A stretch of DNA of 64,000 bases from Chara braunii. Taxonomy: Eukaryota > Plantae > Charophyceae. The stretch lies in NCBI GenBank assembly GCA_003427395.1, contig BFEA01000005.1, positions 4,123,953-4,187,952 on the forward strand, read 5' to 3'. Each line of letters starts with the position of its first letter. Positions within the stretch are counted from its first letter, which is position 1. This document shows positions 23,865-33,900 of this stretch, in pieces. A model generated the notes under the pieces. It worked only from the letters and a program-made list of their open reading frames with translations, had not been told where the DNA came from and searched no databases. Position numbers and translations under genes: made by a program.

Positions 23865-24396
23865 ATGATAAATGAGGTCGATCCAATTCCGATGACGGAC
23901 GGATCGTGGTTCAAACGCAAGAATATGAGAAGGTCTTCATTGTTCAACTTGTTGTCGGTGCGTTGTGACTCAACAAGCACAAACACCTACGAGCTTTCAT
24001 AGGGGTCTTGAAAGTTGGCTATCCGCGGCACTGAAAAAAATTGGATAACGGCGAACTCGATCGGTGTAATACGGAGTCGTAGAATATCCCACTAACCGCC
24101 CTCATCCATAACATTCGAAGTTCGTCAGGATCCGGACTTCCAATACTGACCGATTCTGATTGCCACTTGACTCTCGACGACACATACAATTGCCACAAAT
24201 TTGAAGTTTTTTGCCGTCGTCGGACTTGGGAGTCTTGTTCATCAACTACTCTCACTAAACCCCATATGCCTTTGAATGAAATATTGCAGAACAACATTCG
24301 TTATATGCGGATTTCGCCAGAGCTTGAACTCCTGGTGACCGGTTCGGATCTCATCTACCGTTCGACAAAAGCAGAGGACGCGGATATAAAGTGTTT

Positions 24397-24586
24397 CGCT
24401 ATCCGATGTTCGAGTGTTCTCCACACAAGGGGACTGAATAAGTTCGGATGTCGGAGGACTTGGGAGTTCCGTTCATAAACTGCTCTCATTGAACTGAGAG
24501 CAGTTTATGAACGGAACTCCCAAGTCCTCCGGCATCCGAACTTATTTAGTCCCTTAGTGTGGACAACACTCGAACATCGGATAACG
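24397..24586. repeat. Near-perfect ~190-bp palindrome (6-nt loop TTGAAC)
   Basis: Arms TATCCGATGTTCGAGTGTT...AACTGCTCTCA and TGAGAGCAGTT...AACACTCGAACATCGGATA. Confidence 0.95.
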
Positions 24587-25518
24587 TAAAACTCAAAATA
24601 CTGTCTCTGACATTCGAAGTTCGCCGGAATCCGAACTTCAAATAGTGACCGATTCTGATCCTATCTTCCCTTTCCACACAAACACTAGCCTCGAATATGA
24701 AGTTTTTCGATGTCCCTGCTTCGCGTGTCCACGACAGAAGGACACTGACTTAGTTCGGATGTCGGCAAACTTTGGAGTTTCGTTCGTGAACTACTCTTGT
24801 TGAACCCCTGATGCCTTCGGATGATGCCCTGGACAACACCATCTATGGCATGTGAAGTTCGTCAGAATCTGAACTTCAGATGCCATTGGAAAGGCCGTGG
24901 GCGGGGCCATGATAGCTTTAGCCTGTTTACGAACTCCATGTGTTATCCAAAGGCCCCTAGGGGTCGACTGAAGAAGTTCGGATTGCGATGAATTTGAAAA
25001 GTTCACTCAGGTGCAAGTACCGCCTTCCTGATGAACGCAAACATCGTGACTCACCGCGTGCGAAGTTCGCTGGGATCCGAACTTCGACTGTTGAAGGGCA
25101 TGGAATCCGGTTGGTTTGCGCTGTCCAAGTGAATTTTGTCTTTGCAGAACGTGTGTACTGGCGCTATTTCTATACTGACTCGATTTCATCCTTGCTTGTT
25201 CAATTGCAGACACAATGTCTTCTTCGAGGAGTTGGAGCAGCATGCAGATATCTCCGGGGGTCATGAGTGGCGTGCGGAAACCTCAGGGAGGGAGTCGGGT
25301 AAATAATCGACACGACGGTCTGCTACGCGACGAAGGGCCTGTCCTGGTCCAACCACATGAAGGCAAAATAGTTTGTCGATTGGTGTTGTGGCGATGTTTC
25401 CAACCCCACTAAGGCGCCATGCAGACCTGTCATTTTCGTCGACGACGGCAAACGTCGTGGACTGTTAGGGACCGTCGTCGGGTGGGAGGACAACAAAACG
25501 GGTCGCCGCCATTTCCTG

Positions 25519-32089: not shown

Positions 32090-32719
32090 TTGTCAATTGC
32101 GTATTGCAGCAAAAGATTTCCTCACCCTGTTGCATATCGACGACAGGGTGAACGATGAGGTGGTTAATTTTTACATGGCATTATTGGGGTTGACCGCATG
32201 TGTGATACGTGACATCCTGTCAGGTCTTCAAGTTTTCAGCTGTATTTCATTCTTCTTCAGTAAACTGCAACTTCAAGGACACGGTGGGGTGGAAAGGTGG
32301 GTTAAAAATGTAGATCTGCTTCAATACAATGTTATCTTCGTTCTTGTCCACAAAGATAATGATCACTGGATCCTCCTTGTCGTTAACTTGAGAGATAATG
32401 TCCTCGAAATTTTCGATTTTTTCCTCACGTTATAGCTGATTCGAGCTTTTACCTTAGTGTTTTCGAGTTGATTGCACAGTCTTTGGAACGTCGAACATTA
32501 CATAGGCGGTTTGGTGGTAGTTGAAAGTCGATAGCAGCAAATGTTGTGGTGGACGGAGTTTCAAGACAAGTCAATGAAACTAGTTGCGGGTTATTCATGT
32601 TGATGTTTGCGACGATGTTTCAACGTGGTGTTCGACCACCCTTTAGATTCTCTTGTGAAGATATCCTACTTATTAGACGACAATTGACATCATGTATCTT
32701 AGAACGCCATTGTCTTTGA
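32090..32719 (+). pseudogene. Ulp1/SENP-family (C48) SUMO protease domain, frameshifted
   Basis: VNDEVVNFYM, SFFFSKL, VERWVKNVDLL, DHWILLVV (His), IFD (Asp), then in another frame RQVNETSCGLFML (Gln/Cys) and FSCEDILLIRRQL. Confidence 0.92.
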
Positions 32720-33429
32720 TGAATTTGGTTGACTTAGAGTCTTTCTTTTGAAAGTGTTTCATTCATTAATTATTATATTTTGTAAATCCTGACATTGTTC
32801 AACTGTCATTTTAACAACGACATTGTTTGTTTTAATTGTTGCGAGTTTATCTTTGGCATGCTCACTGCTAGGCTGGCGTCACGTGTAGGATTTCAACTCT
32901 CTGTCAACTTCCAGTCGTCTCTCATGCGACAGAACAAGTGCGCATTGCATTTCATATTTAAAATTTTGTTCAAGTCAACCAAAAATGTATATATGATTGA
33001 TATGATATGGTTCAGTAATTGTAATGCAAATATGACAAATTGGTGTGTGGATACATGACAAATCTCGGCGAGTGTGTGAGTGTGTGAGTGTGCGAATTAT
33101 TTTGCAAATACTACTAACATCACGTCGCTTGCGTGTGCATAGAATCACGTGCCTTGTGACCGCCCACATCACATGTAACCAACAACTTTGCGTTCGTACC
33201 AAAACCTTATGTGCATGGCCAATTAAAGTTCATGTTCAATGAAAAATAAGCAAAATTTGAAGTTCTTGTGTAATATGACATGTGTTGTCGTAGAAAACGA
33301 ACTTGTGTGTCAAAATTGACTGTTTCTTACAACATTATAATATATTTAATAAGTTCACAATGACACATTGTTCAAAGCAAATCAAACATGTACAACAATG
33401 ATATAATCATAACATTTTGTTCATCACAA

Positions 33430-33900
33430 TTGTAAACAAGTATGGATCTCATCACACTTCCGCATATCGGGCGAGATGGTGGGCATGCTTATCTAAAGAA
33501 GTTCGGATCTCATGAACATCCAAACAACCGTCTCAACCGAGCTGGTGGGCATGTTTGCACAACTTAGGGATAACATAACGAAATGTATTATCCAACAAGG
33601 ATTCAAGCATGACACCTCACTCATCACATTTATTAACTTTAAGTTAACAAGTACGGATCTCAACAGACTTCCGCATAGGGTTCCCGGATGAGAATGCCTA
33701 TTATTACACTAAGTCTTCTGAGGAAGTCCAGATCTCATCAAACATCCAAACAATAGTCTCAGGCGAGAGGATGAACATGTCTGTGCAACTTAGGGATAAC
33801 CTAAAGAACTGTATCATCCAATAAGGATTCAATCATGACACCTTGCTCATCTCATTTATAAAGCTTAACAAGTATGGATCTCAGCACGCTTACGCATTTG
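33430..33900. repeat. ~215-bp tandem unit (~2.3 copies) between the convergent genes
   Basis: AACAAGTA(T/C)GGATCTCA at ~33435, 33646, 33867; AACATCCAAACAA..CAACTTAGGGATAAC twice. Confidence 0.85.

Follow-up and report, generated by a model that had tools for sequence, protein, structure and literature searches.

A 24-bp dyad motif arrayed around a gene with predicted ParB/Srx fold in Chara braunii

What holds some twenty copies of one 24-bp quasi-palindrome in place around a single broken gene of Chara braunii? A preliminary description of the window (the whole 64-kb stretch of DNA analysed here) had listed 19 copies beside a ParB-like gene, and proposed that they are sites for a dimeric protein encoded by the element itself. 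Even for VANC of the Arabidopsis VANDAL transposons, it is an open question by what means a transposon's protein finds its own silenced DNA and opens it again over kilobases. At this locus a candidate binder, predicted to have the fold of a bacterial sliding clamp, meets a SUMO protease and an exactly delimited 24-bp site.

Results

Motif array

All 19 reported copies were recovered in place and on the reported strand (19/19), with 0–5 mismatches to the consensus. At ≤3 mismatches the window holds 15 strand-matches where 0.03 are expected, and 0 of 100 shuffles reached 15. A PWM scan of the window added a 20th copy at 33869 (−), at 16.4 bits, and weak remnants at 24388 and 24699; outside 24117–33892 no window site exceeded 10.4 bits. 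Eight copies are upstream, four in the linker, three in an intron and five downstream:

24117..25085, both strands, upstream cluster of eight copies (24117+, 24439−, 24521+, 24616+, 24750−, 24854+, 24973−, 25062+)
29704..30134, + strand, coding-linker cluster of four copies (29704, 29794, 29896, 30111), read K-S-x-x-I-[RQH]-T-S
30898..31656, + strand, predicted GT-AG intron with three copies (30966−, 31297+, 31369+); its donor GTAAG and acceptor TTTACAG match the join of gene model P0018
33437..33892, − strand, downstream cluster of five copies (33437, 33498, 33648, 33723, 33869) in ~220-bp duplicated units

None of the 20 falls in the 5.4 kb that encode the N-terminal part, core and protease (naive P = 1.7e-7, a value that treats copies as independent). 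The array has sharp edges and avoids the exons of the folded domains. The clusters lie where they had been placed before, except that the four linker copies (29704, 29794, 29896 and 30111) are coding sequence of the same gene. An acceptor-like TTGCAG just 5′ of the ATG suggests that the upstream cluster may be intronic. In relatives, gene models extended at the N-terminus likewise contain upstream copies, read as EVRxDPNF, SVGIRSS or KFGSRRTS.

Flanks were compared between copies. Mean pairwise identity is 0.69 inside the motif against 0.27/0.27 in the two 24-bp flanks, and flank is common to 4/171 copy pairs in a gapless test, which undercounts flank sharing. Copies 24439 and 24521 form a 99-bp inverted repeat. 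Because 10/20 copies sit in four local duplication groups (24117/24616; 24439/24521/24750; 33437/33648/33869; 33498/33723), we count about 14 independent contexts. The claim that flanks mostly differ while the motif itself is retained was borne out. Its companion, that 8-bp arms enclose an asymmetric spacer of 8 bp, needs correction, since the spacer is not free: motif positions 14–16 (ATC) and 20–22 (ACT) are both invariant in 19/19 copies. We prefer to read the site as two halves about a 2-bp centre, an 11-bp half-site ATCCGAACTTC and a degenerate left half.

The host gene

The gene carrying the linker and intron copies was mapped as follows:

25215..32720, + strand, one long broken gene with several stops and frameshifts (collinear tblastn matches of 55 Chara braunii proteins, six-frame view)
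26290..26720, + strand, predicted ParB/Srx-fold domain (model residues about 6–155)
27740..28540, + strand, predicted beta-class N6A/N4C DNA methyltransferase fold (model residues 496–763)
32055..32716, + strand, Ulp1 (Peptidase_C48) domain, C-terminal part of the same gene (Pfam PF02902, E 3e-10)

Its order is N-terminal domain, ParB/Srx-fold domain, helical region, methyltransferase-fold domain, low-complexity linker, intron and Ulp1 protease. The Ulp1 domain is shown by its Pfam match, and is fused also in relatives of subfamilies 0, 1, 2 and 4; the other two folds are predicted. No credible Pfam or PHROG family was found for the gene core in 21/21 aligned members, and PDB sequence searches gave chance matches only. 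A first structure model, built from 28 sequences, was unusable (pLDDT 42). The predicted structure of the gene-family protein reached pLDDT 87. The preliminary description had missed both the fusion of ParB, methyltransferase-fold and Ulp1 parts and the subfamily variation of the motif.

Its ParB-like label agrees with the predicted ParB/Srx fold. VIA-align matches were PadC 6ryk (Z 7.5, rmsd 2.9, 99 aligned), KorB 8qa8 (Z 7.3), SerK (Z 7.2), pNOB8-like ParB-N (Z 6.1) and sulfiredoxin (Z 5.7), and the ParB-fold Z-scores are middling (5.6–7.5). ParB-named viral models matched the predicted structure at E 2.7e-4 to 2e-2. Subfamily motif rows show [YF]N[QH]R and GQH[NT] conserved in this domain, at what we take to be the places of the CTP-binding boxes of ParB. 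The canonical ParB CTP box is GxxR; all ten subfamily majority rows have GQH[NT], and the canonical box does not occur. CTP hydrolysis is doubtful, because the Arg of the ParB GxxR box is N or T here. In the helical region that follows, the KorB match spans residues 13–374 at rmsd 12.0, so no HTH is resolved, and the pNOB8 ParB-N match runs to about residue 375 with rmsd 4.8.

The methyltransferase-fold domain matched CcrM by Foldseek (E 5.6e-7) and M.BceJIV (Z 16.8), CcrM (16.4) and rotifer N4CMT (15.6) by VIA-align, in a circularly permuted methyltransferase fold (Z up to 16.8, rmsd 4.0, 221 aligned). FxGxG is the SAM-binding motif of methyltransferases; LGK[PA]H follows strand 712–716 in its place. 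DLCEP and variants follow strand 537–543 where DPPY is expected; residue equivalence in both cases is taken from position. According to the available text of PMC4738411, the catalytic motif of these enzymes is [DNSH]PP[YFW] after strand 4. As modelled, the domain is likely catalytically dead.

Retention as DNA and subfamily variants

Our data support retention of the motif at the DNA level, travelling with the ORF family. Local duplication does not explain all copies, and within the window the motif is enriched near the gene of that family. Non-coding copies, 16/20 in the window, lie on both strands, and coding copies keep synonymous positions. In the linker cluster the Ile codon is ATC in 4/4 and the Thr codon ACT in 4/4, against 15/40 and 16/59 in sampled core reading frames. 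Among relatives, 82/96 linker matches are in a single frame, in subfamily 0, and their Ser/Phe dimorphism (47/35 of 82 matches) agrees with TCC/TTC; these matches make up only seven flank classes, in a list that was PWM-selected. Relatives' gene models also hold other-frame and reverse-strand traces of the motif. The linker would then be an instance of coding sequence in which selection maintains a DNA site.

The motif differs between subfamilies. In non-core regions, K[SF][AVT]xIRT of subfamily 0, the window's own, has 91 matches in 52/95 proteins and 0 in nine other groups. Non-core regions of subfamily 1 (37% identical) hold R[IM][DHNY]P (31 matches in 9/25, null 0.2) and G[SW]IR (9 matches in 8/25, null 0.5), which are two readings of CGGAT-NN-ATCCG; all four NAT-codon residues are present. 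Subfamily 5 has G[CYS]IR (6 matches in 2/6, null 0.1). The peptides of subfamilies 1 and 5 fit this perfect palindrome, which has the same dyad as the window motif. These sister-subfamily variants are back-translated proteins, not DNA. The subfamily 1 pattern was first noticed by eye; an unsupervised palindrome scan came after, and placed TTCGGAT-N2-ATCCGAA top in that subfamily (two frames, 9 contexts, null maximum 3). The subfamily 0 site did not come top, because it is an imperfect palindrome. We set aside the top palindrome of subfamily 2, which is probably an artefact produced by low-complexity GKGSG repeats. In seven of the ten subfamilies tested, these variants were absent and the coding tails showed no convincing palindrome. 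Subfamilies 0, 1 and 5 group in a single clade (FastTree support 1.0, 34/188 proteins), and the dyad persists across subfamilies about 37–42% identical in protein.

The element and its surroundings

We interpret the window locus as a degenerate copy of a multicopy, probably mobile charophyte element. We infer mobility from a gene family of 229 protein clusters, fragments of which are joined, in gene models, to a dynein heavy chain and to hAT, RT and kinase sequences. Among the named relatives, almost all belong to Chara braunii. A conserved upstream gene is present in 11/55 and 15/188 relatives' gene models, 14 of the latter 15 matches being with subfamily 0. No transposase or recombinase family was found among the 35 window ORFs/segments scanned and none was recurrent in 50 relatives, two of which (2/50) carry a fused hAT-related DUF659; no ParA ATPase was found in either set, the window element being incomplete. 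The window ORFs scanned held no DUF3435 captain recombinase, which Starship elements carry at their 5′ end. Self-comparison of the window gave no terminal-repeat pair joining two ends, and no element ends were found; the left side adjoins another high-copy element. On the right is a feature judged by eye:

33960..36060, − strand, possible convergent broken gene with a low-complexity part, a globular part and a Cys-rich RING-like end

This ORF has no Pfam family and no homolog, and is a candidate only for a possible part of the element. Of the earlier placement of copies between convergent genes, the five downstream copies stand, and the right-hand gene has no detectable relatives. Rfam returned 0 families in the window, and two RNA runs 0 reads on the gene over 23610–30200, which is no test of expression. 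We found no description of the Chara family or motif in print; the Chara genome paper and its supplements might mention either.

The motif was also sought elsewhere. Prokaryote genomes gave 0 matches, and viral contigs 0 in one scan and 2 single matches in another, without further copies; no viral locus encodes a relative of the gene family. Metagenomes yielded two loci, of which L002 is a single match, taken as chance. The other, L001, is a 379-bp tandem repeat with one motif copy per unit. Its best protein match among 188 queries (E 0.004, 20 aa) is not significant, and judged from sequence L001 may or may not descend from the gene family.

Discussion

What binds the motif?

The best explanation, which we rate about equally probable to be right or wrong, is that the ParB-domain protein of the element binds the motif as a site specific to its subfamily; the site would be parS-like in form and serve a VANC-like purpose. 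A dimer of the predicted ParB-fold/methyltransferase-fold/Ulp1 protein would bind the 20-copy array. As parS does for ParB, the dyad site would load this protein, by way of either the ParB module or the methylase-fold domain, and spreading along the element may follow. DNA reading could fall to the methylase fold, which is likely dead, and the Ulp1 domain could strip SUMO from local chromatin; each subfamily would thereby keep its own copies open or active. The logic would be that of VANC on VANDAL transposons, made of bacterial or phage parts. Binding site and protein would diverge in step, so that every subfamily ends up with a variant of its own. In favour of this reading are the contrast between the conserved motif and its unlike flanks, retention as DNA, the subfamily variants, the predicted folds, the signs of mobility and the VANC precedent. 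Against it weigh the middling ParB-fold Z-scores, which no Pfam or PHROG family backs, the altered GxxR box, the HTH not resolved, the seven subfamilies that lack a variant, the mostly single-frame linker matches in few flank classes, the origin of the sister variants in back-translated proteins, the subfamily 1 pattern first noticed by eye, and a search that yielded no element ends.

A bolder version, speculative and as a whole rather unlikely, is that a nucleotide-gated ParB clamp loads at the subfamily palindromes and, sliding along the element, takes with it a dead methylase reader and a SUMO protease that together undo silencing; that the 379-bp satellite has captured the same site in the manner of a CENP-B box; and that fungal DUF3723 proteins are ParB-fold relatives with a similar job in Starships.

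Clusters on both sides of the gene and in both orientations would also suit another element-encoded binder, either a transposase with subterminal-type sites or the product of the conserved upstream gene, with the ParB–methylase–Ulp1 gene as passenger. Any element-encoded binder would likewise co-diverge with the subfamilies, and the upstream gene (11/55 and 15/188 gene models) and the DUF659 fusions (2/50) lean the same way. That this upstream gene (15/188), or an unseen transposase, could be the binder counts against our preferred reading. Yet seven copies are internal, in linker and intron; no terminal repeat pairs two ends; no transposase was found in the 35 window ORFs/segments and none recurs among relatives; the upstream gene occurs with subfamily 0 only (14/15 matches); and it is the predicted ParB-fold protein that sits between the clusters. 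We consider a different element protein unlikely, if a serious contender. It is improbable that the site is that of a host transcription or chromatin factor, accumulated by the element for expression or protection. Promoter, intron and 3′ placement would fit such a factor, as would the one copy per unit of the 379-bp L001 repeat, which bears the motif but does not significantly resemble the gene family, a point that also counts against the preferred reading; the 24-bp length and the motif-free remainder of the 64-kb window do not fit, and a motif that differs by protein subfamily is disfavoured under a single host factor.

Three further readings have little room. If the linker copies were a selected peptide, K[SF]xxIRTS, with non-coding copies as by-products of duplication, the single frame of 82/96 matches in relatives would follow; but 16/20 window copies lie outside coding sequence and occupy both strands, the coding copies preserve synonymous sites, and the subfamily 1 palindrome is read in two frames with chemically unlike residues (D/H/N/Y), which makes this very improbable. 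Sites of lox/dif type number one or two per element, with a 6–8 bp asymmetric core and a cognate recombinase. Dyad symmetry with an asymmetric middle recalls them, as does the resemblance of the ParB-like part to DUF3723, cargo of tyrosine-recombinase Starship elements; twenty crossover sites in both orientations would however fragment the gene, sister variants have a 2-bp centre and not 6–8 bp, and no recombinase was found in window ORFs or relatives scanned, so we give this little credence. Neutral local duplication of a motif under no selection, suggested by the 10/20 copies in duplication groups, is largely refuted by about 14 contexts with unrelated flanks, by conservation that drops at the motif edges and by a dyad that persists across subfamilies about 37–42% identical in protein; we think it hardly credible.

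What stands of the proposed element-encoded dimer site is DNA-level retention, the link to the ORF family and the predicted ParB/Srx fold; recombinase-type sites fit poorly, and subterminal sites are weakened. The natural specificity variants of sister subfamilies make a direct swap test possible. If the preferred reading is true, a ParB/parS-type system works in a eukaryotic nuclear genome close to land plants, from which orthogonal DNA-targeting pairs could be drawn, and which would give a clue to the Starship cargo DUF3723.

Comparison with known systems

DUF3723 of fungal Starships is the top language-model look-alike of the ParB-like part (score 0.96) and, in the Starship texts available, is carried by large eukaryotic mobile elements; unlike it, the Chara gene core has no Pfam DUF3723 match, and no captain recombinase was seen. 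Available text likens DUF3723 to TIGR02168 chromosome-segregation genes (10.1101/2021.12.13.472469) and calls its function unknown (10.1101/2025.02.28.640899). Bdelloid rotifer N4CMT has the same beta-class fold (Z 15.6) in a eukaryote and is linked to transposons and tandem repeats, but as described in the accessible part of PMC8885841 it is an active host silencing enzyme with a chromodomain, whereas the Chara domain exists in many copies, is carried by an element and is likely inactive.

Phage ParB-methyltransferase fusions and ParB-terminase loci likewise couple a ParB module to a DNA-modifying enzyme fold (PMC4738411, in part), and ParB-activated phage DNA dioxygenases are a further case (PMC13229309, in part); the available portions of these two papers mention no Chara family. 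The Chara protein gave long structural matches to viral ParB/methylase proteins. It differs in its lost methylase motifs, in about 350 extra helical residues between the domains and in the added Ulp1.

The L001 repeat resembles alpha satellite with its CENP-B box, in that each tandem-repeat unit carries one protein-binding-type motif and a mobile-element-type protein is the candidate binder. With ParB/parS and KorB/operator systems the locus shares a predicted ParB/Srx N-terminal fold and clustered palindromic sites beside the gene, and parS site specificity also varies by family. Unlike them, this is a eukaryotic intron-bearing gene, with no ParA seen, GQH[NT] for GxxR, no HTH resolved, and a fused methylase fold and SUMO protease.

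In VANDAL elements VANB is a Ulp1 protease and VANA a Mutator-type transposase. The Chara gene likewise carries Ulp1, here as a fused PF02902 domain; no MULE transposase was found in the window ORFs scanned and no VANC family was found, the core having predicted ParB and methylase folds and no Pfam match. The candidate binder here is a ParB, methylase-fold and Ulp1 fusion, and copies lie also in coding sequence; VANC motifs are 8–9 bp and not dyads (available text of PMC5735166). According to the same text, the sites of VANC are short motifs, specific to the family, that lie within introns and between genes of the transposon encoding it. The Chara array shares this pattern of motifs piled in the intron, intergenic and terminal non-coding DNA of an element, partly by tandem duplication, and diverging between families.

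The motif array

We confirmed the coordinates of all 19 copies of the 24-bp near-palindrome listed in the preliminary description, and a PWM scan of the 64 kb added a 20th at 33869 (minus strand); outside the array no score in that scan exceeded 10.4 bits. With up to 3 mismatches allowed, the window held 15 strand-matches, versus 0.03 expected. Pairwise identity over 171 pairs was 0.69 within the motif and 0.27 in each flank, bearing out the claim that the flanks mostly differ while the motif itself is kept. Four local duplication groups take in 10 copies, leaving about 14 independent contexts; neutral duplication is a very improbable account of the array, which is real and out of the ordinary.

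The proposed layout of two 8-bp arms flanking a free spacer did not hold, since positions 14–16 (ATC) and 20–22 (ACT) are invariant in 19/19 copies. In the site, an 11-bp half-site on the right, ATCCGAACTTC, is separated by a 2-bp centre from a left half that is degenerate. Eight copies lie upstream of a broken gene, four in its coding linker, three in its intron and five downstream; the 5.4 kb that code for the N-terminal part, the core and the protease hold no copy, matching the earlier impression that the clusters avoid the folded domains. Contigs from DNA runs of the organism joined motif copies across spacers differing from those of the window; this suggests more arrays elsewhere in the genome.

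30898–31656: predicted intron, in agreement with the gene model of a relative

The gene family

A protein search with the middle ORF gave 55 matches, all Chara braunii hypothetical proteins. They align collinearly along the window from about 25290 to 32716, indicating one broken gene, whose C-terminal end is a Ulp1 domain. A family profile search yielded 229 clusters (50% identity threshold; individual entries for the best 150); among 10 distant clusters checked, 8 were from Chara braunii and 2 were metagenome proteins. The 187 clustered proteins formed ten groups of at least 2 members, the nine largest at 24–44% mutual identity. Ulp1 fusion occurred in four subfamilies (2/14 plus 3/36 proteins scanned). 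Two divergent members from short JGI metagenome contigs, P0103 and P0180, form their own subfamily, and the family may range more widely than one species.

Gene models of relatives join family fragments to dynein heavy chain, hAT, RT and kinase sequences, a pattern expected from dispersed insertions. No recurrent transposase was found among the relatives scanned, and no element ends in a self-comparison of the window, so mobility is something we infer. A conserved upstream gene of ~250 aa, absent from the window, stands at the N-termini of four relatives (P0001, P0017, P0027, P0052). It is fused in 15/188 gene models, 14 of them in subfamily 0 (that of the window gene), had no Pfam match in the scanned models, and is a candidate second gene of the element.

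Predicted structure

The 849-residue core of the relative P0009, folded with 97 sequences, gave a model with pLDDT 86.9. Residues about 6–155 resemble the ParB/Srx fold (PadC Z 7.5, KorB 7.3, SerK 7.2, pNOB8-like ParB-N 6.1, sulfiredoxin 5.7) as well as viral models named ParB. These Z-scores are middling yet consistent across proteins, and the predicted fold agrees with the earlier naming of a ParB-like gene amid the clusters. At the GxxR box position the family has GQH[NT]. In a language-model atlas, the ParB-fold part (26290–26720; residues 185–440 of the relative P0024) best matched fungal DUF3723 (0.96), which suggests that this family shares the ParB/Srx fold; the available portions of two sources describe DUF3723 as Starship cargo of unknown function (10.1101/2021.12.13.472469, 10.1101/2025.02.28.640899).

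Core residues 496–763 resemble beta-class DNA amino-methyltransferases in structure searches (CcrM, E 5.6e-7; M.BceJIV, Z 16.8, rmsd 4.0, 221 aligned; rotifer N4CMT, Z 15.6); the atlas match of the methylase part to N6_N4_Mtase (0.87) is a lead only. DLCEP and LGKPH stand where, by position, the DPPY-type catalytic and SAM-binding motifs would be expected, and from this apparent replacement the domain is likely catalytically dead.

DNA site or peptide

The linker copies could instead be a peptide repeat, and 82/96 back-translated matches among the 55 relatives do share one frame, K[SF]xxIRTS. However, upstream extensions of gene models contain strong matches in a different frame and on the opposite strand, and the window's coding copies keep the codons ATC and ACT in 4/4 cases each, versus 15/40 and 16/59 in core frames. 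Peptide position 2 is Ser or Phe only, as expected from TCC/TTC, the matches being PWM-selected.

Variants in sister subfamilies, back-translated from proteins, offer the strongest test between DNA and peptide. K[SF]xxIRT had 91 matches in 52/95 proteins of subfamily 0, amounting to 7 flank classes, as related proteins are not independent events. It was absent from the 25 proteins of subfamily 1, where R[IM][DHNY]P had 31 matches in 9/25 proteins (null 0.2) and G[SW]IR 9 matches in 8 proteins (null 0.5); these peptides are two readings of one palindrome, CGGAT-NN-ATCCG. This pattern was spotted by eye before an unsupervised scan of all palindromes with 7-bp arms, which ranked TTCGGAT-N2-ATCCGAA top in subfamily 1; it has the right half-site and dyad axis in common with the window motif. 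Subfamily 5 had G[CYS]IR (6 matches, 2/6 proteins). None of the three patterns was present in core domains, and the coding tails of the remaining seven groups held no such traces. In a tree of 34 of 188 proteins (midpoint root), subfamilies 1 and 5 group as sisters (support 0.98), and subfamily 0 joins them in one clade (support 1.0). A peptide repeat is highly unlikely; the motif itself is retained as DNA, as had been proposed.

The motif outside the window

Scanning a metagenome collection returned two loci. One, the 1418-bp L001, consists entirely of a 379-bp repeat in tandem (3.7 units, 91–95% alike), with a CENP-B-box-like layout:

117, 496, 875 and 1254, minus strand: motif copies, one per 379-bp unit

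Apart from the motif, L001 did not significantly resemble the window or the window's proteins. By eye, the motif copy of the unit is followed by a degenerate second one, head-to-head. The other locus (L002), a single match only, was set aside as chance. The prokaryote genomes scanned gave 0 matches and the viral contigs two single matches only.

Surroundings in the window

6475–11157, plus strand, and 54968–55501, minus strand: degenerate coding parts of Gypsy-type retrotransposons (gag, protease, RNase H, integrase; RT)
33960–36060, minus strand: possible broken gene that combines a 15-bp repeat and a globular part with a Cys-rich, RING-like end; homology searches gave no relatives

On its left, the motif-bearing element borders on, or is cut short by, a different element at 17060–24050, which has long inverted ends (17060–17177 vs 23748–23867) and 26-bp arrays at 17626 and 23374. 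That side adjoins very high-copy sequence, at a depth of 1900–7300 versus about 13 for single contigs; the depth in the thousands belongs to the right part of the 17060–24050 element. The window's sole CGGAT-NN-ATCCG match with at most 1 mismatch (22349–22360; about 0.06 expected by chance) falls within this neighbour. Several 91-bp tandem arrays, one pair inverted, occupy 14711–16714 and 19463–20055, together with a 1.8-kb direct repeat (12324–14149 vs 20940–22753). Nested long palindromes near the window end (62788–63529) have a 96–157 bp unit in common with 37513–37669. The minus strand at 36700–37400 resembles, by eye, a decayed large-subunit rRNA fragment; Rfam gave no match there at gathering thresholds.

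Proposed function

A site with a dyad, retained as DNA even in an exon and varying by subfamily, is most simply read as that of an element-encoded dimer. The nearest candidate binder is the predicted ParB-fold protein that the sites surround, and we put self-recognition by this protein at an even chance. Binding by another element protein is possible although doubtful, a host factor would be a distinctly poorer candidate, and use of the copies as recombination sites is very hard to credit. Under self-recognition, the predicted ParB-fold protein would load at the sites and perhaps spread, the likely dead methylase fold might read DNA, and the protein could remove SUMO locally, for a net effect of VANC-like anti-silencing or self-activation.

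Comparison with known systems

The literature searched held no description of the Chara family or motif, though supplements may contain one. The protein has the predicted fold of beta-class methyltransferases (PMC4738411, PMC8885841) but appears to fail both catalytic motifs. Internal methyltransferases are known from charophyte retrotransposons, where the accessible portions of PMC5890265 and PMC12344493 describe the C5 type. The family also fails the canonical CTP box of ParB, and no ParA was found among 35 window ORFs or segments or 50 relatives scanned. Phage ParB proteins activate DNA-modifying enzymes with no need of the CTP residues, according to the available part of PMC13229309, and are a precedent for a non-canonical ParB. 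No MULE transposase was found in the scanned window ORFs, and none recurred among relatives. The Chara system would be like VANDAL/VANC in how it works, as far as the excerpted text of PMC5735166 describes it, and is like ParB/parS in appearance; we file it under neither.
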